Source of the DNA: Anaerolineae bacterium | GTDB lineage: Bacteria > Chloroflexota > Anaerolineae > DRVO01 | NCBI GenBank assembly: GCA_013178015.1 | Contig: JABLXR010000031.1 | Span: forward strand, 21,108-85,107 | Direction of reading: 5' to 3' | Length of the DNA: 64,000 bases | In this document: positions 12,934-32,417 of the stretch, in pieces | Layout: every line of letters starts with the position of its first letter | How positions within the stretch are numbered: position 1 is the stretch's first letter | Position numbers and translations under genes: made by a program | The notes under the pieces: model-generated | Database searches by the model: none | What the model saw: only the letters and a program-made list of their open reading frames with translations | Told to the model about the DNA's origin: nothing

Positions 12934-14154
12934 CTACGGCGACCGGAAGCCAAACATGCGCCCGCTCTCGGTCGGCCTGGCCCCCAGCTCCACCGGCACG
13001 TCCAGTGTCTCATCACCGCGCACGATGGTCAGAACTACTACGTCGCCCACGGAGTATTTCTCCAGCCGGCTGATTAAGTCGTTCATGCCCGTGATACTCT
13101 GGCCATCCAAGGCGATGATGATGTCCCCACCCACCACCACTACGTCGTCGTAGCCCGGCACGTTGAGCGAGCGGTTGCCTCCTCGGAGGCCAGCTTCCTC
13201 GGCCGGGCCTCCCGATGTTACCTCGCCGATGAGAGCACCCCGGCTCACAGGCAGGTTCCCGACATTCGCCAAAGCATCGGTGATGGTCCACCCTCTGATC
13301 CCCAAGTGCGGGTGCAAGTACCGCCCATCCGTGATGAGGGCGGGCACCACCCTCTTCACAGTGTTGACGGGCACGGCAAAGCCGATGCCGCTGAACTCAC
13401 CCGTCTGGGAGTAGATCATGGTGTTCACCCCAATCACTCGACCGCGTATGTCGAACAGCGGTCCTCCGGAGTTGCCCGGGTTGATGGAGGCATCGGTCTG
13501 GATCAGGTCAGGTAGGGAGAAACCGCTCGCCTGCATGCTCACCCGGCCAAGCGCGCTCACGATACCCGCAGTCATGGTACCCTCAAAGCGGAAGGGGTTC
13601 CCGATGGCGACCGCCGTTTGACCCACCTGGACCAGCTCCGAATCCCCCAGCTCCAGCGGCACTAGAAGCTCCGGATCGGCTCCGACCTGGATCACGGCTA
13701 GGTCGCTGTCCCGATCGGTTCCGACGATGGTGGCCTCGAACTGGCGCTCGTCGGAGAACACCACCGTCACCCGAGAAGCTCCTTCCACCACGTGGTTGTT
13801 GGTCACGATGAAGCCGTTCCGGTCCCAGACCCAGCCGGAACCGGTACCAGTGATGCCAGCTAGGCCAGCCCCGGTGACGTAGATGTGGACCACGGAGCCG
13901 CTGAACCTCTCGTAGATGCTCGCCAGCGCCAGATCGCGAGCTTCCACGTAGCTAAGCACATCCTCGGACACCGGAGTGAGGGCAGGCCGGGGCGTAGGCG
14001 TTGGCACTGTGATGACGGGACGCGCCTCCAGCGTTGCCCTCTCGATCCGAGGCAGGGTGGGCGTCGCTTGCTGCAGTACGCCCAGGGAGGGAGCGCAAGC
14101 AAGACTCAACAGCAGAAGGCTCAGTGTGGCAGCGATCACCAACGGCCTACGCAT
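12934..14154 (-). CDS. HtrA/DegP-family trypsin-like serine protease with PDZ domain
   Basis: The catalytic triad regions are present (NNHVV, GNSGGPL), with a C-terminal PDZ domain and a signal peptide from the ATG at 14154 (MRRPLVIAATLSLL), which follows a GGAGG. Confidence 0.85.
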   Translation of the reverse strand: MRRPLVIAATLSLLLLSLACAPSLGVLQQATPTLPRIERATLEARPVITVPTPTPRPALTPVSEDVLSYVEARDLALASIYERFSGSVVHIYVTGAGLAGITGTGSGWVWDRNGFIVTNNHVVEGASRVTVVFSDERQFEATIVGTDRDSDLAVIQVGADPELLVPLELGDSELVQVGQTAVAIGNPFRFEGTMTAGIVSALGRVSMQASGFSLPDLIQTDASINPGNSGGPLFDIRGRVIGVNTMIYSQTGEFSGIGFAVPVNTVKRVVPALITDGRYLHPHLGIRGWTITDALANVGNLPVSRGALIGEVTSGGPAEEAGLRGGNRSLNVPGYDDVVVVGGDIIIALDGQSITGMNDLISRLEKYSVGDVVVLTIVRGDETLDVPVELGARPTESGRMFGFRSP

Positions 14155-14170
14155 GCACAACCTCCGCGCG

Positions 14171-15160
14171 CTACGCCTCTTGCGCGCTCTGCAGCGCACG
14201 AACTACGACCCGAAGGGCCCTCAGGCCGTCCTCCCCCGTGACGGCCGGGCGGGTGCCGGTGGCGCAGCAGTGCACAAAGTGGCGCATCTCGTCCAGGAAC
14301 ATGTTGTTCTTGCGGAAGACCTCCGGCCGCTGCACTTCCCCCGTGTCCAGCAGGTACATCCCCACCCCATCGGAGGACAGGTCAGCCGGTACCCGGTCCC
14401 GAGGCACAGAACCGGGAAAGAGGATAGAGCCGCCGGGGCCGATGGCGTCCTGCCCGGTCAGGCCGGAGGCCCCAGAAGGCAGCCCCCAGGTCCAGCTCAA
14501 CACTAGCTCGTCGCCGCCTTCGTAGCCTATGCTCACTGTGGCCGTGTCCCACGCCGTGGACTTGAACCGCCGTACCGCCCCCTGGGACCAGGCCATGTCG
14601 CCGAACAGCCAGTTGGCGAAGTCAACATCGTGGATGGCGCCATCCACAATGGGGCCGCCGCCCTTGTCCCGGTCCAGATACCAAGGGCTGCGCGGACCGC
14701 CACTGGCCGCAAAGTGTCGCCAGACTATCGGCCGACCGATCGCGCCCGCCTCCACCAAGCGCTTGAACGCGCCCCAGTCGTTATCGAACCGACGCACGAA
14801 GCCGACCATCAGGTGCACCCCAGCTCGCTCGCAGGCCTGGATCATGGCCTCGGCGTCAGCTTCCTTCAGAGCGATCGGCTTCTCGCAGAACACGTGTTTT
14901 CCCGCCTCGGCAGCCGCCAGCACTGCCAGTGGGTGCAAGAAGGTCGGCAGGCAGACTAGTACCGCATCCACACTTGGATCGCGCACCAGATGGCGGAAGT
15001 CAGTGTAGGTTCGCTCAGGCTCGAACTCGCGGGCGTAGGCCTCCAGTACCTCCTCATCCGCATCCGAGGCGGCGACGATGCCTACCCCTTCTATCTCCCG
15101 CAGTGATCGCGAGTGATACCTGCCCATGCCGCCACAACCGATGATACCGATCTTGACCAT
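14171..15160 (-). CDS. Gfo/Idh/MocA-family NAD(P)-dependent oxidoreductase
   Basis: The N-terminus MVKIGIIGCGGMGRYH and an EKP motif are present over 329 aa. Confidence 0.85.
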   Translation of the reverse strand: MVKIGIIGCGGMGRYHSRSLREIEGVGIVAASDADEEVLEAYAREFEPERTYTDFRHLVRDPSVDAVLVCLPTFLHPLAVLAAAEAGKHVFCEKPIALKEADAEAMIQACERAGVHLMVGFVRRFDNDWGAFKRLVEAGAIGRPIVWRHFAASGGPRSPWYLDRDKGGGPIVDGAIHDVDFANWLFGDMAWSQGAVRRFKSTAWDTATVSIGYEGGDELVLSWTWGLPSGASGLTGQDAIGPGGSILFPGSVPRDRVPADLSSDGVGMYLLDTGEVQRPEVFRKNNMFLDEMRHFVHCCATGTRPAVTGEDGLRALRVVVRALQSAQEA

Positions 15161-19386: not shown

Positions 19387-20568
19387 GTGAGCGTGACTGC
19401 AGCAAGCGACCAGCCACCGGGTAGCCCGGCTCTCGAGACCAGAGCGCCTAGCGTCCTGGTCAAGCCTGTGTCCGCCCGGTGCAACCTGGCTTGTCGATAC
19501 TGCTTCTATCGGGACCGGGCGAGCGACCCCTATCGAGGCGTACCGGCCGGAACCATGCCCCGCGAGACGTTGGCTGCCCTCGTGGCCCAGCACCTGCATC
19601 TCTCGGGGCCGGTCGCCGTGTTTGGCTGGCAAGGGGGAGAGCCCACTCTGGCGGGCCTCGACTTCTTCCGCCAAGTAGTGAACTTCCAGGAACGATACGG
19701 CGCCTCCGGTCAGGTAGTGTGCAACGCGCTGCAGACGAACGGTGTGGCGCTGGACGCCGAGTGGGCCCGATTCCTGGCTCGCTACCGGTTCCTGGTTGGT
19801 GTGAGCCTTGACGGCCCTCCAGAAGTGCACGATCGCTGGAGGCCCGGCCACGGTGGGGCGCCCACCTACGAGCGGGTCATGGCCGGCATCTCCATCCTGA
19901 GGCGGTATCGGGTGGAGACAAACATACTGGCGGTCGTGCACTCCGCCAATGCTCACCTCGCGGAGACCACTCTGTCGTTCTTCCACGCCCAAGGCCTGCG
20001 GCACCTCCAGTTCGTGCCGGCCGTGGACCGTCTCCCCGACGGATCCCTGGCGGCACACTCCCTCGCTCCGGCCGCTTACGGCGAATTCCTCTGCCGCCTA
20101 TTTGACGCCTGGTATCAGGACGGCCGCCCGGAGCTCTCCATCCGTCTCTTCGACAATCTGGTGGGTATCGCCGCCGGGCACCCCAGCGAGATGTGCGAGC
20201 TAGCAGCACGTTGCGACAGCTACTACGTGGTAGAGCACAACGGTGACGTGTATCCTTGCGACTTCTTCGTGGACCGGCCCCGCTACCTCGGCAACCTGCT
20301 TCGTGAGCCGGTGACCCAGATCCTGAAGAGCTCCCGCCGCCGAGCGTTCGCCAGCACCAGACAGACGCTGCCCCAGGGGTGCGCCGACTGCGTGTGGCTG
20401 ACCGTGTGCCACGGGGGCTGCCTGCGGTATCGCTTCGCTGGTACGGGCTCCCTCACCGGGGCCAACTGGATGTGCGAGGCCACCATCATGCTGCTCGAAC
20501 ACGCCTGGGAGCGGATCTGCACTCTAGCCGCAGCCATTCCTTCACATGCCAGCTCTCCCCCAGCGTGA
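19387..20568 (+). CDS. radical SAM/SPASM-domain protein (anSME-like maturase family)
   Basis: GTG start. The CNLACRYC (Cx3Cx2C) motif begins at residue about 31. The C-terminal SPASM cysteine cluster reads …CADCVWLTVCHGGCLRY…. Confidence 0.85.
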   Translation: MSVTAASDQPPGSPALETRAPSVLVKPVSARCNLACRYCFYRDRASDPYRGVPAGTMPRETLAALVAQHLHLSGPVAVFGWQGGEPTLAGLDFFRQVVNFQERYGASGQVVCNALQTNGVALDAEWARFLARYRFLVGVSLDGPPEVHDRWRPGHGGAPTYERVMAGISILRRYRVETNILAVVHSANAHLAETTLSFFHAQGLRHLQFVPAVDRLPDGSLAAHSLAPAAYGEFLCRLFDAWYQDGRPELSIRLFDNLVGIAAGHPSEMCELAARCDSYYVVEHNGDVYPCDFFVDRPRYLGNLLREPVTQILKSSRRRAFASTRQTLPQGCADCVWLTVCHGGCLRYRFAGTGSLTGANWMCEATIMLLEHAWERICTLAAAIPSHASSPPA

Positions 20569-20598
20569 GGGAGAGAAACACACCCGGAGGCCTTCCTG

Positions 20599-21534
20599 AT
20601 GCGCATCGTCTTCTTCTCTTACCGCGGCACCATCGGCGCCCGCTGCTTACAGTGGCTCCTGCAGCAGCCACAGGCAGAGGTGCTGGCGGTGGTCACCTGG
20701 CCTGATTACGTTCACCCGGAGATCAAGATCGCCGTCAAGGAGGTGCTCTACGATGCGCACCTTCCCCTCTACCAGCCGCGGGATGTGAACTCGAGTGCCT
20801 TCGTCGCCCTCCTGCATTCGCTCCGGCCGGACCTGTTCGTTTCCATGTACTTCGGCAAGCTCTTCAAGGCCCCGCTCCTTTCCGTCCCACCCCAGGGCTG
20901 TGTCAACATCCACAACTCGCTTCTGCCCCGATACCGAGGCCAGGCGCCCAACATCTGGGCGGTAGCCAACGGGGATACCGTATCCGGCCAGACCATGCAC
21001 TACCTGGATGAGGGGATGGACACTGGAGACATCATCGCCCGCAAAGAGATACCTGTGGACCCCGCCGACACCGGTTACACGCTGGGGGCAAAGCTGGAGG
21101 ACCTGGGGGTAGAGCTCTTCAAGGAGGCGTTCCCCGCCGTGCTGAATGGTACCGCTGGCCGCCAGAAGCAGGACGACTCTCAGGCTACGGTCTGCCGTGC
21201 GCCTCGTCCTCACGATGCTCGCATAGACTGGACCCGTCCAGCTCCGGCCATAGCCAACTTCGTCCGGGCCTTCACCAGGCCGTATATGGGAGCCTTCACC
21301 CGGCTGGGCGGGCTCACAGTCCGGGTCTGGTCCTCACGTCCCGCCCCCGAGCTTCCGTGGCAGGCGGATGCCGCACCGGGCGACGTGGCAGGAGTGGAGG
21401 CCGAGGGACCAATAGTGCGCTGCGGCCAGGGCCACCTCATCCTGACCGACTTTGAGGTAGAGGGCATCCAGGACCGGAGCTCGGCCCTGTCACTGCTTTC
21501 GGCAGGCAGGCGTAGCTGCGCCTCGTTCGCCTGA
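20599..21534 (+). CDS. formyltransferase-family protein (Fmt/ArnA-N-like)
   Basis: The N-terminus MRIVFFSY…, an NIHNSLLPRYRGQAPNIWAV (SLLP/HxSLLPxxRG) motif and an Fmt-like C-terminal domain are present over 311 aa. Confidence 0.8.
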   Translation: MRIVFFSYRGTIGARCLQWLLQQPQAEVLAVVTWPDYVHPEIKIAVKEVLYDAHLPLYQPRDVNSSAFVALLHSLRPDLFVSMYFGKLFKAPLLSVPPQGCVNIHNSLLPRYRGQAPNIWAVANGDTVSGQTMHYLDEGMDTGDIIARKEIPVDPADTGYTLGAKLEDLGVELFKEAFPAVLNGTAGRQKQDDSQATVCRAPRPHDARIDWTRPAPAIANFVRAFTRPYMGAFTRLGGLTVRVWSSRPAPELPWQADAAPGDVAGVEAEGPIVRCGQGHLILTDFEVEGIQDRSSALSLLSAGRRSCASFA

Positions 21535-21682
21535 GCCCATCGGGCGAAGGATGGCACGGCGATCCGCCTCTTCTGCCCGCCCAACCTCTCGATGGCTTTC
21601 CCTGTGGCTGTGACCCCTCGCCCGTCCCTACAGCCTGGCCAGCGTTGCCCAGAAGCGTCCGCCCCCTCATAACTGCGTCAAG

Positions 21683-21741
21683 TTGCCGGATCCGGCAAAA
21701 AAGTCTGCCGGATCCGGCAATCAGATTTGCCGGATCCGACA
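21683..21741. promoter_or_regulatory. three tandem palindromic operator-like sites TTGCCG-GATC-CGGCAA (ComA-box-like 6-N4-6 geometry)
   Basis: A perfect 16-bp palindrome at 21683-21698 with near-copies at 21706-21720 and 21727-21741, spaced about 22-23 bp apart and lying in an intergenic region. The half-site TGCCGGA recurs at 22454-22488. Confidence 0.6.
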
Positions 21742-21920
21742 TGACGAACCCTGCCTCAAGCCCGGTATCATACACCTGCGGTGGAAGCAAGGCCGTTGCC
21801 GTGGACCGCGGCGACACTGCCGCCAGGGAGGGGAGCCGACCACCTCCAGACTCGCACGGCGGCGGAGGGCCGGGCCTGCGACAGCTTCCGCCATATCTGG
21901 CCAGAGGTGGAGAGGTACCG

Positions 21921-22244
21921 GTGACCGCTCAGAATGGTACAAGGGCACTGGTGTATATTCGGGTGTCCTCGGGCTTCGGCGTGGACGGCCAGCGGGAACG
22001 CTGCCTCAGAGAGGCGATGCGTGCCGGCTGGAGGGTGGAAGCTGGTGACGTGTACATAGACGTAGGGACGGAGGGCGGCCGCGCCTGGCGAGCCCTGCGA
22101 CGGCGGCTTCTGGACGACCAGTCCGTAGCGGCCGTGATCGCCCAGGATCAGACTCGGGTGAGCCAGCAGCGCGACGTCTGGCTCGCCATCGCCGCCGAGC
22201 TGCGCGACCTGGGCGTCGAGCTGCGCACTCCTAGTGCCAGTTGA
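21921..22244 (+). pseudogene. truncated serine recombinase (resolvase catalytic domain only, no DNA-binding domain)
   Basis: A GTG start follows GGAGAGG. The sequence ALVYIRVSSGFGVDGQRERCLREAMRAGW… matches the resolvase N-terminal catalytic-Ser motif. It spans only about 107 aa and lacks the C-terminal HTH. Confidence 0.5.
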
Positions 22245-22423
22245 CCCCTCATCCGGGTACGACGGCCACGGCCAGGGCGTCTCGGGCGGCTGAGCACCCA
22301 TCCCGCACGGGCGCCAGCGGGGCCGCCTGGTCCCTGGCTGGACCCTGTCGGACTCGGACAGGGGCAGAAAGACAGGCCAGGCCGAGGGGAGGCCAACTCG
22401 GACATTGCCGGGTATTGCTTGAT

Positions 22424-22453
22424 TTGACGTGTAATGGAAATCAGCTCTAGTAT
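22424..22453 (+). promoter_or_regulatory. candidate sigma70-type promoter for the precursor operon (TTGACG-N18-TAGTAT)
   Basis: An AT-rich island stands out in a GC-rich background about 170 nt upstream of the precursor ATG. It is followed by the split palindrome CTGCCGGA-N19-TCCGGCAG. Confidence 0.4.
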
Positions 22454-22620
22454 CTGCCGGAAGTGCGAAAGTGGTACCTATCCGGCAGCCAGGCTTGGTG
22501 GGTCCGGCACGGCCGCGGAAGCGGCGGTGGCGCGCTCTGATCGCCGGGGCAGGTAGTGGGGCGGCATACCTTGCCTCCGGAAGGTTACGGCGCCGCTCTG
22601 GAAGCGCTCAGGAGGTCCGT

Positions 22621-22911
22621 ATGAATCATCTGGCCCGCGCTGTACACGACGCACTCTCAGGCAAGAGGTCCATTGATCAGCTCACTGAGACCGAGGCGTT
22701 GGCCCTCGAGGAGTCGCTCAGAAGCCTCGGGCGAGCCCGGGGCTCTGTGGGTCCCCAGGAGGCCTGGGCCGTGTCGCCAATGGCCCAAGCCGGACCGGGC
22801 CCCCAAGAAGCCTGGGCCGTGTCCCCTATGGCTGAGGCCGGTCCGGGCCCTCAGGAGGCCTGGGCCGTATCGCCAGCAAGCAAGACGGACCCCAGCGCCG
22901 GGGAACTCTAA
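22621..22911 (+). CDS. ComX-like precursor peptide with three tandem 16-aa Trp-containing repeats
   Basis: AGGAGG lies 5 nt before the ATG at 22621. The 43-aa leader is followed by GPQEAWAVSPMAQAGP / GPQEAWAVSPMAEAGP / GPQEAWAVSPASKTDPSAGEL, encoded by 48-bp repeats at 22750-22908 that carry synonymous differences. The ORF from 22471 is an over-extension. Confidence 0.6.
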   Translation: MNHLARAVHDALSGKRSIDQLTETEALALEESLRSLGRARGSVGPQEAWAVSPMAQAGPGPQEAWAVSPMAEAGPGPQEAWAVSPASKTDPSAGEL

Positions 22912-23101
22912 GCCGGTTCGGCCGTCGAGGAGCCAATCACACGCCTTGCCTGAGCTGGCAGGTTCTGTTCCCACGACTGCCGCGCCGGACCCGGGGTCTG
23001 CAGGCCACCTAGAAGGCTTCCGTGCCAGAGCCCGTGCCCTGATCGGAGGTTGCCTCAGCGAGGCGGGCGTCGAGCAAGCCTGTGCCCGGCAGATCAGCGA
23101 C

Positions 23102-23968
23102 ATGGTGGCCAGTTGGTTGGATCAGAGCCGGCATCACCAGGGCATACTAGACCTGCCAGCTCTCGTCTGCTGGGCCGCAGGGGGCGACCCCGTCCAGGCG
23201 GCGCCGGCCGGCGCCGCCTGGTGGCTCATGCGGTTTGCTGCCAAGCTCTTCGACGATGTAGAGGACGGCGACCTGTCCCACGGGCTTCCGGAGGCGGTGA
23301 ATCTGGCTTCTGCTGCCCTGATGGCTGCCCAGGCGCTCATCTTGGGCTCGGCCTGGCCAGCCCCGGCTGGCCCTACCGCTGTCGGCCTCGAGTTCGCCCG
23401 CGCCTGCCTCGTAGCTGCCGGGGGGCAGCATCTGGACCTGGCGGTCGCGAGCGGCCAGGCACACATTGACCCGGACCTCTGGCTCTCCATGGCCCAGGGC
23501 AAGTCGGGCTCGCTCCTGGGCTGGGCCGCGTGGGCCGGAGCCGTGGCCGCAGGGGTAGACCCTGCCCTCGCCTGCCACTTCCGTGACTACGGCAGATGGC
23601 TCGGCGTCCTGGTGCAGATTGCCGACGATTACGCCGATACGTGGAGCCCGACCTCTCCGGCCGACCATGGCTTCCGCGGCTCCTCGTTGGCGCTCGCTTA
23701 CGGACATCTGGTCTCCGATGGCGACACGAGGGCGGAGCTCGAGCTGTGGCTGAAGAGAGCCAGGGATGGCGATTGCTGCGCCGCTGAGCTCCTGCGCCGG
23801 AAGCTTGCTTCCCTCGGTGCGCCGGCCTTCCTCGTGGTGGCGGCCAGGGATTGCCGGGAGCGAGCGACGCGTGAGCTCAGGAAGACAGGCTGCCAGGCAA
23901 GTCGCGGTGCTCCCCTGCTGGGCCTCCTGGGACACCCGCTGAGATCGGTCGAGCAGGCGGGGGTGTGA
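23102..23968 (+). CDS. polyprenyl synthase-like isoprenoid transferase (ComQ-like)
   Basis: Two DDxxD motifs are present (AAKLFDDVEDGD and LVQIADDYADTW, the latter in an FQxxDDxxD-like context). The stop lies 4 nt before the kinase start. The start is uncertain: the first in-frame ATG is at 23102 and an upstream TTG at about 22947 is an alternative. The 22673 ORF start overlaps the precursor and is rejected. Confidence 0.65.
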   Translation: MVASWLDQSRHHQGILDLPALVCWAAGGDPVQAAPAGAAWWLMRFAAKLFDDVEDGDLSHGLPEAVNLASAALMAAQALILGSAWPAPAGPTAVGLEFARACLVAAGGQHLDLAVASGQAHIDPDLWLSMAQGKSGSLLGWAAWAGAVAAGVDPALACHFRDYGRWLGVLVQIADDYADTWSPTSPADHGFRGSSLALAYGHLVSDGDTRAELELWLKRARDGDCCAAELLRRKLASLGAPAFLVVAARDCRERATRELRKTGCQASRGAPLLGLLGHPLRSVEQAGV

Positions 23969-23972
23969 CGTC

Positions 23973-26231
23973 ATGGACTTTGCGCCGACCACACAGCTCT
24001 CCCGGAGTTCTCGTGCATCGGCCCTGAGCGCCCTGCACATCGTCCTGATAGTTGCCTGCGCCCTCCTCGTCCTCTGGGCCGCCTCGGCGGCAGTTGGTCG
24101 GTCCTGCAGGCACGGCGGAGGCACCGCCCCCTTCCACGGAGGGGCCTGTCCTTCTTTGGCCGAGGACCTGGCGCCGTTAGCGGTCGCCCTCGGACTGGCG
24201 ATGATAGCCTGGCGACTGCGACACCTGCCCCAACCCTCTCCCTTCCTCACCTTCATAGGCTTCTCGATTGCAGTGGCCTCCGGCAAGCTCGGGCTGCTCG
24301 GCAGCGATGTGGGCATGAGGCTGTACTTCATCTCGCTGGCGGGGGCAGCACCAGCTTTCTTCCTCCTTCATCACCGCCTGCTCGGGGAGCCGTTGGGGCG
24401 CCGTTCCCGGAGGGTCCTCGCGGCGCTCCTCGGCCTGGCCCTGGGGCTCGCCCTGCCGCCGGCTCTGGCCTCCTTCGCCGTCCTGGCAGAGCAGCCCTGG
24501 TACTCCCTGTGGCGGGGAATGGTCCGCCTGTCGGCGGCCTTGTCTGTGTTGGTGTCCGGAGCCTGGCTGGTGTTCTCCTGGAGGCGGGACTGGCCCGAGG
24601 TGAAGCTGCGACCCCTGCGTCTGGTAACCTATGGCAACATCGTCGCCTTCGCCCCTCTGGTGTTGCTGTCCATGCTGCCCGACACCTTTCACAGCCCAGT
24701 CTACGTGCCCTACGAGATCACCCTCTTTGGCTCCCTCCTGAGCCCGCTCTGCTACTCCCACGCTTTCACTATGACCGGTGCCCCGGGGCACGGGGTCCGC
24801 CTGCGGTTCCTTTCTGTCTACCTGATGCTGGCCGTCCTGCTCACCTTCGTCCTCCTGGTGGCAATGGCCGCTTTCACTGTCGCTGGCCTGCCAGTAGGTC
24901 AGGCCTGGGCGATCGCTCTGCTGGTCGCTTCGGCTGCCATCGTTGCCGTCGGGCCGAGCACAAGGCGGTGGTTCACCGGCCTGTCCGAGTGGACCTGGTT
25001 CGGTCGCGGCCCTGGGTACGACCAGATCCTGGATCGCCTGTCCGAGACTCTTTCCACCACCTTGGACCAGGAGCGTCTGCGCCGCATGCTGGTTTCCGAG
25101 CTCGTTCGGGAGTTAGGCCTCTCCGGCGCCGCTCTGTTCCTCAAAGACAGCACCGGTCACCTGCGTCTGGTCGAGGCCGTGGGGTCGATGCACCTGGAGA
25201 ATGCTGACCTGGCTGTCCCCGTGGATGGCCCCCTGGTGGAGCATCTCTCCACCCACCCACGCCCCGTCACCCAAGACGGACTGCGGCAGGCACTTGCCTC
25301 ACACAGCCTTGGCATGGCGGAGCGGTTCCTGCTGGCCATGGAACCGCCTCTCTGGGTGCCGCTCGTCTCGGGGGGCGAGGCGTACGGCCTTCTGCTGGTA
25401 GGTCCCAAGACCGATGCCGACTTCTTCACCCCTGATGACGTGCGCCTTCTGACACTGCTGGGCTACCGCGCCGGGGTGGCAGCACACAATGTGCTGCTTA
25501 TGAAAGAGCTGCGCCGCAGCCACGAGCAGCTTTCCCGGGCTCACCAGCGCCTCCTCGATGCCGTCGAGCAAGAGAGGCGACGCCTTGCCCACGAGCTGCA
25601 CGACGGAGCAGTGCAGCAACTCCTCGCCGTCACCTACCACGTCGCCCACTACCGGCACACCCTTGCCGATGACGGCGGCGAGCAGAGCTCGGCCGTGCAG
25701 GCGGCTTCCGAGGCGCTAGACTCGCTCCGGCAGGAGCTGCTAGCAGTGGTTACCCAGCTGCGGTCCAGCATCAGCGGCTTGCGCCCGGCCGGGCTGGACG
25801 ACTTGGGCCTGGCGGCGGCGCTGGCCGGCTACGTGTCCCGACTGGAACAGGAGCATCTGGGCCGCATGCCCGAGATTGAGCTGGACCTGGATGAGGGTTC
25901 GGCTCGGCTGCCCTCTCGCGTGTCCCTCTGTCTGTTTCGAGTGGCCCAGGAGGCCCTGCGCAACGCCATCAGGCATTCGAGAGCCGATTTTGTGCGTGTC
26001 AGGCTGAGGGTGGAGGCCGAGCGCGTTCACCTCCTGGTGAGTGACGACGGACAAGGTTTCGTCGTACCCGAGCGCCTGAGCCAGCTGACCGGCGAGGGTC
26101 ACTTCGGCTTGCTCAGCATCTCGGAGCGCGTCTCCCTGTTGCCGGGCAAGTTGACCATTCGCTCCCGTCCTGACTACGGAACGGAGATCTCTGTTGATGT
26201 TGACCTCAGCGAGGTAGACCCCAGTGATTGA
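23973..26231 (+). CDS. multi-TM sensor histidine kinase, HisKA_3/HATPase (ComP-like architecture, with GAF domain)
   Basis: About 8-10 N-terminal TM helices and a GAF-like region. The H-box LAHELHDGAVQQLLAV is of HisKA_3 type (NarX/DegS/ComP type), and a C-terminal ATPase domain follows. The protein is 752 aa. Confidence 0.85.
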   Translation: MDFAPTTQLSRSSRASALSALHIVLIVACALLVLWAASAAVGRSCRHGGGTAPFHGGACPSLAEDLAPLAVALGLAMIAWRLRHLPQPSPFLTFIGFSIAVASGKLGLLGSDVGMRLYFISLAGAAPAFFLLHHRLLGEPLGRRSRRVLAALLGLALGLALPPALASFAVLAEQPWYSLWRGMVRLSAALSVLVSGAWLVFSWRRDWPEVKLRPLRLVTYGNIVAFAPLVLLSMLPDTFHSPVYVPYEITLFGSLLSPLCYSHAFTMTGAPGHGVRLRFLSVYLMLAVLLTFVLLVAMAAFTVAGLPVGQAWAIALLVASAAIVAVGPSTRRWFTGLSEWTWFGRGPGYDQILDRLSETLSTTLDQERLRRMLVSELVRELGLSGAALFLKDSTGHLRLVEAVGSMHLENADLAVPVDGPLVEHLSTHPRPVTQDGLRQALASHSLGMAERFLLAMEPPLWVPLVSGGEAYGLLLVGPKTDADFFTPDDVRLLTLLGYRAGVAAHNVLLMKELRRSHEQLSRAHQRLLDAVEQERRRLAHELHDGAVQQLLAVTYHVAHYRHTLADDGGEQSSAVQAASEALDSLRQELLAVVTQLRSSISGLRPAGLDDLGLAAALAGYVSRLEQEHLGRMPEIELDLDEGSARLPSRVSLCLFRVAQEALRNAIRHSRADFVRVRLRVEAERVHLLVSDDGQGFVVPERLSQLTGEGHFGLLSISERVSLLPGKLTIRSRPDYGTEISVDVDLSEVDPSD

Positions 26232-26913
26232 TCGGCGAATCAGAGTGCTCTTGGCTGATGACCACCCCTTCATGCGCGCTGGCATCCGAGCCACGCCGGC
26301 AAGCGAAGGGGACGTCAGCGTGGTAGGCGAGGCCAGCAACGCCGATGAAGCGCTGCAGCTGGCGATGCAGCTCAAGCCCGATGTGCTCCTCCTGGACCTG
26401 CACATGCCCGGGTCTCCGGCAGGGTCCGTGGTTGAGGAACTGAAGCGCCGTTGCCCGAACGTCCGGGTGTTGGTGCTCACCGCCTACGACGACGACGTCT
26501 ACGTACAGGGCATGCTGGCGCTAGGTGTAGCGGGGTACGTCCTCAAGGACGAAGTGCCTGAAGCACTCGTCCGAGCCTTGCGGGCCGTCTACCGGGGCGA
26601 CACGTGGTTCAGCACCCGCGCCCTGAACGCGTTGGCCCGCAGCCGGCAGGCCTACATGCCCCAGGACGGGCAGGGCCTCTTCACTGAGAGAGAGCTCGAG
26701 ATATTGCGCTTGATGATGGTAGGCAAGACGGACCGAGAGATTGCGGACGAGCTAGTCTGCGCGGAGAGGACCGTCCGGTATCACTTGCGCGGCATCTTCG
26801 GCAAGCTGGGCGTAGACAGCAGGGTGGAAGCGGCGGTGCGCGCCGCCCAGCTGAACCTCGGCGGCCGGGAGGGCACTGCTTCGGACTCGAGCGCCGGCCA
26901 ATCGCCCTCGTAG
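26224..26913 (+). CDS. NarL/LuxR-family response regulator (ComA-like)
   Basis: The GTG start overlaps the kinase stop (GTGA). The receiver domain (VLLADDHP…LLLDLHMPG) is followed by the LuxR HTH (TERELEILRLMMVGKTDREIADELVCAERTVRYHL). Confidence 0.9.
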   Translation: MIDRRIRVLLADDHPFMRAGIRATPASEGDVSVVGEASNADEALQLAMQLKPDVLLLDLHMPGSPAGSVVEELKRRCPNVRVLVLTAYDDDVYVQGMLALGVAGYVLKDEVPEALVRALRAVYRGDTWFSTRALNALARSRQAYMPQDGQGLFTERELEILRLMMVGKTDREIADELVCAERTVRYHLRGIFGKLGVDSRVEAAVRAAQLNLGGREGTASDSSAGQSPS

Positions 26914-30949: not shown

Positions 30950-31531
30950 CTAGCCGGTGAAGAACGGGAACTCGGTGTCGTCCCAGTAGGTGTTGTTGTC
31001 CTCCAGGTACTCCAGACTTCGCTGCAGCCACTGGTGATGACGGTTCTCCTCCTCCATCAGGAGGCGATAGGCAGCTCGAGCGTTGGGGTCGTCGGCCCGT
31101 TCGTAGGCATCCCGATAGAGGGCGAATCCGCGTTCTTCTGCCTTGAGGGCCAGTTCCAGCGCTTCGCGGTCGCCCGACCCGGCGTGAAGACCAGGGATCA
31201 CCCGGCTCGGATCCGGGAAGAGCCGCTCCTCGGGTATGGCAGCCCCAGGCACGTCGCCAGGGGAAACCTTGAACTGCTCAATCGGGGGAACAGAGGCGGC
31301 CTTGGCCTTCTCCACACTGATCCACCCACCGCCATCGAGCAGACTCTGATACTCGCCCGCTAGGACACGGTAGTGCTCCTCTTCGTCATGGGCCAAGCCC
31401 AGAAACATGCGCCGACCCATCTCGTCCCGCACGTGATGGGCAATCGCGAGGTAGTAGCGTCTACCTTCCTGCTCGTTGATGATCGCGTACGCCAGCGCTG
31501 CCAGCGCCGCCGCGTTCGATGCTGAGGACAT
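30950..31531 (-). CDS. ferritin-like/rubrerythrin-like domain protein (no obvious encapsulin targeting tag)
   Basis: Two E…EEH-type helix pairs (…DEMGRRMFLGLAHDEEEHY… and …EEENRHHQWL…) are separated by a Pro-rich linker. The gene is immediately downstream of the encapsulin gene. Confidence 0.55.
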   Translation of the reverse strand: MSSASNAAALAALAYAIINEQEGRRYYLAIAHHVRDEMGRRMFLGLAHDEEEHYRVLAGEYQSLLDGGGWISVEKAKAASVPPIEQFKVSPGDVPGAAIPEERLFPDPSRVIPGLHAGSGDREALELALKAEERGFALYRDAYERADDPNARAAYRLLMEEENRHHQWLQRSLEYLEDNNTYWDDTEFPFFTG

Positions 31532-31583
31532 CGGGCAAACTCCTCCGACTGACAGAATGTACTGACGCGGAAGGCACGATCGC

Positions 31584-32417
31584 TCACTCCAGAACGCAGA
31601 TTCCCTCGGGGCGCCGTATCCGCAGCGCCAGGGTCTCCAGCACCCGGAAGGGATGGTTCAGTTCCTCCGGGCCCTTGTAGGCGACCTGAATATCGCCGCC
31701 GATGGCCAGGTCCAAGACGTCAGGGCCGGATGAGACCAGAGCGCCTGTGCCGGCATCCAGAATGGGGCTCTGGAAGACCCCCGCCTCGGCCACCGACTTG
31801 ATAAGCTCCAGCTCCAGCCTACCTCCGTGCCCGAGAATGCGCAGGAGCTTGGTGTACAAGTCGGGCGCGAGCACCAGAGCGTACGGGCCCATGGCGGCGT
31901 TGGCCACCAATAGCGAGCGGGCCTGTGCCACCGCCGCCAGCCCACTTCCCGGCTCCTCCCAGCCAGCCTCGATCGCCACCGTCACGTGTCCGGGAACCCT
32001 CATGATTCCGGGGTTGTCGTCCGTGCCGTAGAACACCAGTCGGTCCTCCGCGCGGGCGAGCATCGCCCCCGCGGCTGCTCCGGCAGAGACGTCCAGGGGA
32101 GCGTGCAGGTCCCGCGCCGTGGCGATGTCCCGCCACGTGAGCCGAAAGTCCTTGTACAGCATCTCCAGCGCCAGCAGGCGCCTCTCCGTGGGCACGACCT
32201 CGTCGGTCTCCTCTTCGCCATAGGTGCCCATGGTGCCCGGGCTCACGCCCTTGACCTTGTCCACCCACACGGCCTGCACTCCCAGGCCCAGAGGCCCGTA
32301 CAGGCTGATGAACCGCCTCCCTACCAGGTTCGCCCGGGCGGCCTGCATCACGGCAGAATCAATCTGCTCCCACTCCTGGTCGCTCAAGGGAGCGTCCTGT
32401 CGCAACAACAACTCCAT
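31584..32417 (-). CDS. family 1 encapsulin nanocompartment shell protein (linocin M18-like, HK97 fold)
   Basis: The N-terminus MELLLRQDAPLSDQEWEQIDSAVMQAARANLVGRRFISLYGPLGLG aligns with the T. maritima encapsulin start ([20 protein letters not shown]…GRKF…GP.G). The protein is 277 aa with GGAGG upstream. Confidence 0.85.
   Translation of the reverse strand: MELLLRQDAPLSDQEWEQIDSAVMQAARANLVGRRFISLYGPLGLGVQAVWVDKVKGVSPGTMGTYGEEETDEVVPTERRLLALEMLYKDFRLTWRDIATARDLHAPLDVSAGAAAGAMLARAEDRLVFYGTDDNPGIMRVPGHVTVAIEAGWEEPGSGLAAVAQARSLLVANAAMGPYALVLAPDLYTKLLRILGHGGRLELELIKSVAEAGVFQSPILDAGTGALVSSGPDVLDLAIGGDIQVAYKGPEELNHPFRVLETLALRIRRPEGICVLE

Follow-up and report, generated by a model that had tools for sequence, protein, structure and literature searches.

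A candidate multi-core precursor of a tryptophan-prenylated signal at the head of an X-Q-P-A cassette in an Anaerolineae bacterium

We analyzed a 64,000-nt stretch of contig JABLXR010000031.1 from an Anaerolineae bacterium of the phylum Chloroflexota (the window). At 22621..22911 (+) it contains an uninterrupted open reading frame (ORF) of 96 codons plus stop, encoding a peptide with three tryptophan (Trp) cores. We consider it probable that this ORF is a multi-core precursor of the ComX/PalX type, 'X', for a Trp-prenylated signal and that it opens a cassette of the order X-Q-P-A, in which four adjoining genes on the (+) strand encode the precursor, an isoprenyl-synthase-like enzyme, a histidine kinase and a LuxR-type regulator. 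It is likely that the adjacent enzyme acts on the precursor as part of a signalling cassette, and the chance that each unit is released as a separate pheromone is about even. The description as a multi-core ComX-like pheromone precursor fits best because the precursor is conserved, the peptide is under selection, the copy number of the units varies and the gene context is ComX-like.

The precursor gene and its repeated units

The ORF translates without internal stop as MNHLARAVHDALSGKRSIDQLTETEALALEESLRSLGRARGSV + GPQEAWAVSPMAQAGP + GPQEAWAVSPMAEAGP + GPQEAWAVSPASKTDPSAGEL*. The first part, MNHLARAVHDALSGKRSIDQLTETEALALEESLRSLGRARGSV, is a leader region of 43 amino acids (22621..22749, +), predicted to be helical from the family consensus and from an AlphaFold2 model of the precursor, which places helices at residues 3-12 and 23-40 with a pLDDT of about 80. 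The precursor is thus predicted to consist of an ordered leader and a disordered repeat region. Core unit 1, GPQEAWAVSPMAQAGP (22750..22797, +), and core unit 2, GPQEAWAVSPMAEAGP (22798..22845, +), were delimited by translation, a tandem-repeat scan, codon comparison and a pattern count. The 16-residue unit has the consensus GPQEAWAVSPMA[Q/E]AGP, of which two copies are full and the third is partial. The three Trp residues of the precursor are W49, W65 and W81. An earlier sequence-only reading of this DNA had proposed the ORF, the 43-residue leader and the unit boundaries at 22750-22797, 22798-22845 and 22846-22908, all of which were borne out by the translation. It had also described three near-identical units of 16 residues; this holds for units 1 and 2, but unit 3 (22846-22908) has only its first 10 residues in common with them. 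The conserved part of core unit 3, GPQEAWAVSP, lies at 22846..22875 (+) and differs from units 1 and 2 at third codon positions only. It is followed by a non-repeated C-terminal tail, ASKTDPSAGEL (22876..22908, +), as seen in the translation; single-core relatives have similarly variable tails.

Tandem Repeats Finder reported a 48-bp period with 2.6 copies, 81% matches and a score of 170. A degenerate core pattern occurred three times in the 64-kb window, against 0.03 occurrences expected from shuffled sequences. In agreement with the suggestion that the repeats differ mostly at synonymous sites, units 1 and 2 are separated by eight synonymous differences and one non-synonymous difference (pS 0.67, pN 0.03, Fisher p = 1e-5). 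Within the shared block of 10 codons, all three unit pairs show 3-6 synonymous and no non-synonymous differences. Counted by codon position 1/2/3, the differences between the unit pairs are 1/0/8, 0/0/3 and 0/0/6. Because the units differ almost entirely at third, synonymous positions, the comparison points to purifying selection on each unit, and the frame starting at 22621, not the overlapping ORFs, therefore appears to be the one under selection. The selection on the peptide that had been proposed is thus seen in all three unit pairs, and the codon comparison indicates that the repeats are old and maintained by selection on the peptide.

Other signals of a real gene agree with this. The GC content of the precursor by codon position is 0.72/0.59/0.72, matching the pattern of the adjoining genes, and a Shine-Dalgarno sequence, AGGAGG, read in the sequence at 22610..22615 (+), ends 5 nt before the ATG. 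In the contig of the closest located relative, locus L001, the ORF is kept and AGGAGG likewise precedes its MNRLAY start. Over 3.3 kb the window agrees at 99.85% identity with L079, a contig of an independent metagenome that encodes the identical three-unit peptide, and the database protein P0001 is identical to the precursor. The expected conservation in relatives was thereby confirmed, together with the coding signals.

A spurious ORF and two overlapping frames, 22673-23968 (+) and 22657-23103 (-), were considered as alternatives and rejected on the grounds of the third-position differences, the retention of the ORF in relatives and the NCBI start of the enzyme, a TTG at 22946. A non-coding RNA in 21500-23500 was also rejected, all Rfam matches being below threshold.

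No curated Pfam or NCBIfam family was matched by the precursor. Among 22 members of the precursor family, models of ComX (PF05952), NHLP, Nif11, thiovarsolin and FxSxx gave no credible match, and PF05952 remained unmatched by any of the 22 even at E <= 1.

The adjoining enzyme, kinase and regulator

Directly downstream, at 22946..23968 (+), lies the gene for a trans-isoprenyl-diphosphate-synthase-like enzyme of 340 amino acids, which by its PF00348 match and its motifs is a putative tryptophan prenyltransferase, 'Q'. It is a single-domain protein and matches the Pfam polyprenyl_synt model (PF00348) with E = 8e-11 and 42 bits (cut-off 27). It corresponds, with the same start, to the NCBI protein HPY83_12960 of an Anaerolineae metagenome-assembled genome (MAG). 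All six close homologues keep DDVED as their first aspartate-rich motif (FARM), a GQxxD motif, a Lys-Ser pair and Q224, and all six have a canonical second aspartate-rich motif (SARM), D227-D228-x-x-D/E, which reads D227-D228-Y-A-D231 in the window. In chain-elongating trans-isoprenyl diphosphate synthases (IPPS), the KRxR and RRG motifs bind isopentenyl diphosphate (IPP). The enzyme and its close homologues are without the GGKRxR (KRxR) and RRG motifs of the IPP site. Since FARM and SARM are kept and KRxR and RRG are absent, the motifs indicate that the prenyl-donor site is intact and the IPP acceptor site is lost.

An AlphaFold2 model of the enzyme (pLDDT 86) has the IPPS fold, with TM-scores of 0.70-0.78. 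In a Foldseek comparison with the PDB, peptide prenyltransferases could not be told apart from ordinary IPPS enzymes; TM values of 0.6-0.78 were found for all of them. A profile of the enzyme family run against PDB sequences had Ord1 as its second-best match (E = 5e-18), with the Q-x-x-D-D motif aligned. Ord1 (PDB 9V4G, 9V4J) is an all-alpha-helical tryptophan/indole farnesyltransferase that acts on free tryptophan. It shares the fold of the window enzyme and the Q-x-x-D-D motif, which is implicated in indole activation, but keeps a longer loop with RR after the FARM that is deleted in the window family.

The enzyme gene is followed by that of a polytopic sensor histidine kinase of 752 amino acids, 'P' (23973..26231, +), in which membrane segments precede GAF, HisKA_3 and HATPase_c domains; hydropathy shows about 9-10 hydrophobic segments within residues 1-330. 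The last gene of the cassette (26224..26913, +) encodes a NarL/LuxR-type response regulator of 229 amino acids, 'A', with Response_reg and GerE domains, and its start overlaps the kinase stop by 8 nt. The idea of a ComX-like pheromone precursor, put forward earlier from the peptide, is strengthened by these neighbours, as a polyprenyl-synthase-like enzyme, a polytopic HisKA_3 kinase and a LuxR regulator all adjoin.

The cassette may have its own promoter. A sigma-70-like candidate, TTGACG and TAGTAT with an 18-nt spacer, lies at 22424..22453 (+), about 170 nt upstream of the precursor start. It is the sole promoter-like site in 22100-23100, with 0.0 expected from shuffles, and both hexamers are kept in L001, in an orthologous intergenic stretch that otherwise diverges. 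We infer from this conservation that the site works as a separate promoter of the precursor. A weak hairpin followed by a T-rich tract at 22945..22962 (+), found by consensus scan only, is a low-confidence candidate for an attenuator; it lies between the precursor stop and the enzyme start and overlaps the TTG start of the enzyme.

Relatives, copy number and the upstream neighbourhood

One close precursor homologue was found, P0002 of L001, with 58-59% identity and on a contig syntenic with the window over 20 kb. It has four units, GPNEAWAVSPMAEIDP, two of KPEEAWAVSPMAEIDP and then KPEEAWAVSPLTETSKGLA, and its units 2 and 3 are separated by five synonymous and no non-synonymous differences. 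All homologues of the enzyme retrieved by protein search, in five metagenome loci, are directly preceded by a small ORF whose product has a related leader and a single invariant Trp. There is one core per locus in L007, L008 and L009 and there are two in L006. The single-core precursor P0020 of L012 carries the window's own GPQEAWAVSP core (…VDGPQEAWAVSPAAVATGA).

A pattern scan of GTDB species genomes, based on the enzyme alignment, gave 56 loci, all but two of them in Chloroflexota; as the pattern was built from FARM and SARM, these 56 loci are no independent proof that the SARM is universal. They belong to Anaerolineae, Anaerolineales, Herpetosiphonaceae, Ardenticatenaceae and Caldilineaceae, and nearly all have a Trp-containing ORF of 45-85 amino acids immediately upstream of the enzyme (45-120 amino acids for the metagenome and GTDB loci together). 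In the closer clade (L001, L006, L007, L009, L012-L020), a kinase with a homologous N-terminal membrane domain follows the enzyme directly, and the regulator lies downstream of the kinase wherever the contig reaches. This membrane domain, HK_N, was matched only in the X-Q-P-A clade. Among the more distant loci with enough flanking sequence, most have genes for a HisKA_3 kinase and a LuxR regulator no farther away than about 3 kb, usually on the opposite strand.

Loci L022-L065 from GTDB Chloroflexota constitute a second branch of such cassettes, which is the larger one. Their distant enzymes are accompanied by upstream ORFs of 45-60 amino acids with another leader type, M..MQxFxxxL…, and the precursors have W-x-x-W, W-x-W or up to four consecutive Trp as C-terminal motifs, several being Trp-terminal like PalX. 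In this branch the kinase gene is usually found upstream on the other strand and the regulator gene downstream in convergent orientation. The two records from outside Chloroflexota are L045, labelled as an uncultured Sideroxydans MAG, and L066 from Streptomyces sp. NPDC002870, the sole locus from a cultured strain. L066 matches the enzyme family weakly, with 30% identity and E = 1e-5, and neither an upstream Trp-containing small ORF nor a kinase or regulator match was found there. The L066 protein probably represents another enzyme.

When 1.84 billion representative proteins were searched with a profile built from 22 precursors, 104 matched at E <= 1e-3. The precursor family comprises about 100 sequence clusters, and its located loci are almost all in Chloroflexota. 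Almost all profile matches are 60-75 amino acids long and follow the consensus MNxLAxxVHxLVxG…LSxxExxAL…LAxxLAxxxPxxW, with one or two prolines within a few residues after it; in single-core relatives a variable tail of up to about 16 residues follows the Trp. A protein of 606 amino acids from the same search, P0111, with 'VEQKEWSSSPKEKDVC' repeats, was rejected as a spurious low-complexity match.

Multi-core precursors account for 9 of the 119 collected family members, about 92% of which are single-core. Three units are present in the window and in P0030, P0031, P0033 and P0052, four in P0002 and P0017, and two in P0026 and P0116. The multi-core members are spread over five or more leader lineages, and most of their closest neighbours have a single core. 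This distribution, judged by leader similarity and not by a formal tree, suggests that core expansion happened repeatedly and independently. The four units of P0017 show only synonymous differences in the eight codons of APTQSEWW, and their linker residues diverge. In P0031 and P0052, the repeated unit takes in the last leader helix (the P0031 unit, RDLARTLAAEGPQVQWWSPPS, occurs three times), and the repeat is therefore recognition sequence plus core. Such joint repetition of recognition sequence and core is found in other multi-core precursors of peptides that are made by ribosomes and modified after translation (RiPPs).

The largest array was found in L021, where at least 12 units of GPFPGWQGMELAE lie on both sides of a scaffold gap; this copy number is a minimum across the gap. 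The array (L021:1472-2249) has a different leader (MAHQFQHIVHALSTDRGFLIRFLREPEAVLQSF…) before its at least 12 near-identical 13-residue units, and a related enzyme lies directly downstream. Its 39-bp repeats are 95-97% identical and are broken by a gap of 100 N, and the array looks like a recent, very large expansion. The copy-number variation that the sequence-only reading had led us to expect was thus found among homologues, with 1, 2, 3, 4 and at least 12 units. At strain level, no copy-number polymorphism was found in a metagenome scan with a degenerate P-[QE]-E-A-W-A-V-S-P DNA pattern, because the sole real match of 24, L079, is the same organism with the same three units; the other 23 were chance matches in unrelated ORFs, for example a nitroreductase-like one. 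Taken together, the family has tandem units, a conserved core, more variable linkers and a copy number varying among homologues, as is typical of a multi-core precursor.

These data bear on how many of the units act as signals. If only one unit, for example the C-terminal one, were the pheromone, the upstream units would be an extended leader, a spacer or enzyme-binding modules. The prevalence of single-core members in the collected family would agree with this, and so would the deviating last unit in the window (the ASKTDPSAGEL tail) and in P0002; in known systems, moreover, the Bacillus ComX pheromone is C-terminal and PalQ requires a terminal Trp. However, the Trp block of every unit is strictly kept despite saturated synonymous divergence, which would not be expected of a spacer or leader extension, and at least 12 near-identical units in L021 are hard to explain as a leader. 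We therefore regard a single signal as unlikely.

It is improbable, in our estimation, that all Trp residues are prenylated and the repeats stay intact, giving an uncleaved product that is membrane-anchored, surface-active or a multivalent ligand. Selection on every unit is equally compatible with such a product, the cassette has no protease gene and the units have no obvious known cleavage motif such as GG or KR. On the other hand, a polytopic sensor kinase is conserved as partner, and kinases of this type bind short ComX peptides; the single-core precursor of L012, with the same core, would give a very different product for a homologous receptor. The spacers between the cores also diverge faster than the cores, as is expected of excised linkers. 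Separate peptides from each unit, as in our preferred reading of a multi-core signal precursor, are suggested by the purifying selection on every unit and by the recurrent expansion of copy number; modification per unit and separate release are what we would infer from these sequence patterns.

The cassette could also have a role other than signalling, the product being an antimicrobial or secondary-metabolite RiPP and the two-component system only regulating its production or immunity. RiPP clusters often carry regulators, and the products of StheX and PalX are likewise without an established biological role. Yet transporter, immunity and further tailoring genes are absent from the cassette, the minimal set of precursor, enzyme, kinase and regulator is kept over wide divergence, and the large membrane domain of the kinase co-varies with the cassette, HK_N being confined to the X-Q-P-A clade. 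A function outside signalling is accordingly quite improbable.

Upstream of the precursor lie a radical S-adenosylmethionine (rSAM)/SPASM gene, a formyltransferase gene and a gene of about 100 codons for a resolvase catalytic domain only. The rSAM/SPASM gene and, after 30 nt, the Fmt/ArnA-like formyltransferase gene (together 19387-21534, +) are kept as a pair in L001. Between the formyltransferase and the resolvase-domain ORF, the palindrome TTGCCGGATCCGGCAA of 15-16 nt occurs three times within 60 nt (21683-21741). Its Rfam matches are only below threshold and resemble REP (repetitive extragenic palindrome) elements or naRNA4; candidate roles of the triple palindrome are those of an operator array, of a REP-like element and of a terminator. 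At 21933-22229 (+), inside the ORF 21645-22244, a serine-recombinase catalytic domain of about 100 amino acids (Resolvase, PF00239) stands alone, with the YIRVSS motif kept and without a DNA-binding domain. Between the window and L001, this protein is 78% identical, the enzyme 62% and the precursor 59%. A resolvase-domain gene is also present just upstream of the precursor in L012 (45%) and is not found in more distant cassettes.

The repeated aromatic motifs had also been linked to the rSAM/SPASM enzyme (19387-20568), which would cross-link them as a cyclophane maturase. Its gene lies 2 kb upstream on the same strand, and the enzyme is distantly similar to cyclophane and darobactin/dynobactin maturases. 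No ORF of at least 250 amino acids in the window has the C/S-x-P-x-R sulfatase signature in a crude regular-expression test, so that the substrate of the enzyme is not evident. The rSAM-precursor pair occurs also in L001, but this co-occurrence is uninformative because L001 is syntenic over 20 kb. The link did not stand up to the family models and the wider comparison. The enzyme passes the equivalog cut-off of the NCBIfam anaerobic sulfatase maturase TIGR03942 (370 bits against 349) and falls far below all cyclophane, darobactin and dynobactin maturase cut-offs (YhhB 150 against 445, XyeB 118 against 450, GrrM 117 against 310, FxsB 129 against 370). The formyltransferase gene, the triple palindrome, the resolvase-domain gene and the separate conserved promoter intervene before the precursor. 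Furthermore, the rSAM gene was found only in the closest syntenic relatives, L001 to L003 and L011, and is absent from all other loci, even from L006 and L067, the located multi-core loci with upstream sequence. A radical-SAM link to the precursor is thus not supported, and we consider it very improbable that the peptide is a cyclophane substrate.

Elsewhere in the window and unrelated to the precursor, an encapsulin gene (Linocin_M18-type shell) adjoins a ferritin/rubrerythrin-like cargo gene at 30950-32417 (-). The pair was recognized by its translations and by synteny with L001, which is annotated.

Comparison with known systems, proposed mechanism and meaning

The window enzyme was compared with ComQ, StheQ and PalQ by published motifs and descriptions, not by aligned sequences. 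A 2014 census of comQXPA loci described a PF00348 enzyme of about 300 amino acids, a ComX of 52-73 amino acids (PF05952) with the Trp 5-10 residues from the C-terminus, a membrane HisKA_3 (PF07730)/HATPase_c (PF02518) kinase, ComP, and a Response_reg/GerE regulator, ComA, and found no such locus outside Firmicutes (PMC4008528). The Bacillus ComX pheromone is the C-terminal segment of its precursor (PMC4008528). The same four functions adjoin on one strand in the window, where a single-domain PF00348 enzyme, a membrane HisKA_3/HATPase_c kinase and a Response_reg and GerE regulator are found. The differences are several. The gene order is Q-X-P-A in Bacillus, whereas the window and all close relatives have X-Q-P-A. 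ComQ has a pseudo-SARM, NDxxx, with a functionally important Asn, in contrast to the canonical SARM DDYAD of the window enzyme. The precursor differs from ComX in having 96 amino acids, three internal Trp cores and no PF05952 match, and 15 residues follow its last Trp. Compared with ComP, the kinase contains a GAF domain in addition, and the phylum is Chloroflexota instead of the Firmicutes of the census. The system would work like ComQXPA but departs from it in gene order, pseudo-SARM, ComX length and the ComX model. Further marks of the Bacillus type are pheromone activity and a Trp that is geranylated or farnesylated at C3, with closure of a pyrroloindoline ring.

Within Chloroflexi, StheQ of Sphaerobacter thermophilus prenylates the penultimate Trp of the adjacent StheX, a peptide of 69 amino acids (bioRxiv 10.64898/2026.08.29.745113). 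As in the window, a ComQ-like enzyme lies beside a small Trp peptide, and the ordered leader and disordered C-terminal core of StheX resemble what is predicted for the window precursor. On the other hand, stheX is downstream of stheQ and encodes a single core with the Trp next to the C-terminus, whereas the window precursor is upstream, longer and three-core. StheQ has a DExxD FARM and the pseudo-SARM residue N215, where the window enzyme naturally has D. The Asn is important in the ComQ family, as N-to-D mutants of ComQ and StheQ lose 90-98% of their activity (98% for StheQ N215D) (bioRxiv 10.64898/2026.08.29.745113). Because it has D at this position, the window enzyme is no orthodox ComQ. 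The GTDB pattern scan retrieved no Sphaerobacter locus.

The third system, PalP-PalX-PalQ of Paenibacillus alvei, consists of a histidine kinase, an NHLP-type precursor and a FARM/SARM enzyme with a key Gln; PalQ accepts a terminal Trp only and not a C-terminally extended one (PMC10853753, PMC13290415). Its similarity cluster contains only Paenibacillaceae, Clostridium and Geobacillus, all Firmicutes (PMC10853753). The window resembles this system in that the precursor is directly upstream of the enzyme (X before Q) and a histidine kinase belongs to the cluster. The SARM region reads QMNDDWAD in PalQ (Q197…D200…D204, from mutagenesis primers) and QIADDYAD in the window, both with Gln three residues before the SARM. 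PalX, however, has an NHLP-type leader and one core with a C-terminal Trp, in contrast to the internal, repeated Trp and the missing NHLP and Nif11 matches of the window precursor. Some distant Chloroflexota precursors have a terminal Trp like that of PalX.

Precursors with multiple copies of a signal or core are known, among them the yeast alpha-factor precursor MFalpha1 and the cyanobactin precursor PatE. For the Rap-Phr (RRNPPA) systems, tandemly duplicated pheromone propeptides of variable copy number are described, the copies being freed by proteolysis (PMC11343458). Phr peptides are unmodified, exported by Sec and sensed intracellularly after import, in contrast to the window cores, which are predicted to be Trp-prenylated and to be perceived by a membrane-bound kinase. 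Literature searches yielded no account of a ComX-type precursor with several cores, nor of the Chloroflexota precursor family. The window cassette belongs to a Chloroflexota X-Q-P-A family with a SARM-retaining enzyme lacking the IPP site and a precursor family of its own, of which the ORF in the window is a three-core member.

In the mechanism that we propose, the cassette would be transcribed from its own promoter, and the 43-residue helical leader would dock on the adjacent enzyme by analogy with StheQ-StheX and PalQ-PalX. A geranyl, farnesyl or longer diphosphate would be bound via FARM and SARM by an enzyme that is presumably unable to elongate chains because its IPP site is lost. The indole of each GPQEAWAVSP Trp would then be alkylated with the help of the Q-x-x-D pair common to Ord1 and PalQ. 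A protease, for which the HtrA-like gene at 12934-14199 is one candidate, could cut the disordered repeats between the units, giving two to three near-identical prenylated peptides of about 10-16 residues; the release of three signals from one precursor, as suggested earlier from the repeats, would have to include the truncated third unit. After export, the peptides would be sensed by the polytopic kinase, which, as the conserved gene linkage suggests, would phosphorylate the LuxR-type regulator. Extra copies would yield more signal per translated precursor, as in yeast alpha-factor and the duplicated Phr propeptides.

Several points weigh against this picture. Prenylation and its regiochemistry, like the donor length, the cleavage sites and export, are proposed by analogy. 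Where ComQ and StheQ have the important N of their pseudo-SARM, the enzyme has D, and its way of working may be another. The SARM-containing relative PalQ takes only a terminal Trp (PMC10853753, PMC13290415), and the Trp residues of the window precursor are internal. The cassette contains no protease or exporter gene, and the precursor matches neither the ComX nor the NHLP or Nif11 models. Finally, one long product modified at several sites, or units serving as enzyme-binding modules, would also agree with the selection seen on all units.

ComX-type signalling, in which a peptide is lipidated on tryptophan, had been known from Firmicutes alone until a preprint of 2026 dealt with one enzyme of Sphaerobacter. 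The window and its relatives provide a complete precursor-enzyme-kinase-regulator cassette in Chloroflexota, including filamentous Anaerolineae. These filamentous bacteria are common in anaerobic digesters, sediments and sludge, and little is known of cell-cell signalling in the Anaerolineae group, most members of which are uncultured. We tentatively suggest, at somewhat less than an even chance, that Chloroflexota and especially Anaerolineae possess a widespread, hitherto undescribed prenyl-Trp quorum-sensing family that relies on a SARM-retaining isoprenyl-synthase homologue lacking the IPP site, and in which arrays of 2 to at least 12 copies have arisen repeatedly, one lipidated pheromone coming from each unit. 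The multi-core precursors give a direct experimental handle on the prenylation of internal Trp, on the number of prenylated residues per precursor and on the cut sites. The enzyme may also serve peptide lipidation, since internal Trp residues within short, repeated motifs flanked by proline appear to be accepted as its substrates. If the proposal is true, the window precursor would be the first multi-core precursor of the ComX type and a bacterial counterpart of yeast alpha-factor, in which copy number sets the signal dose.

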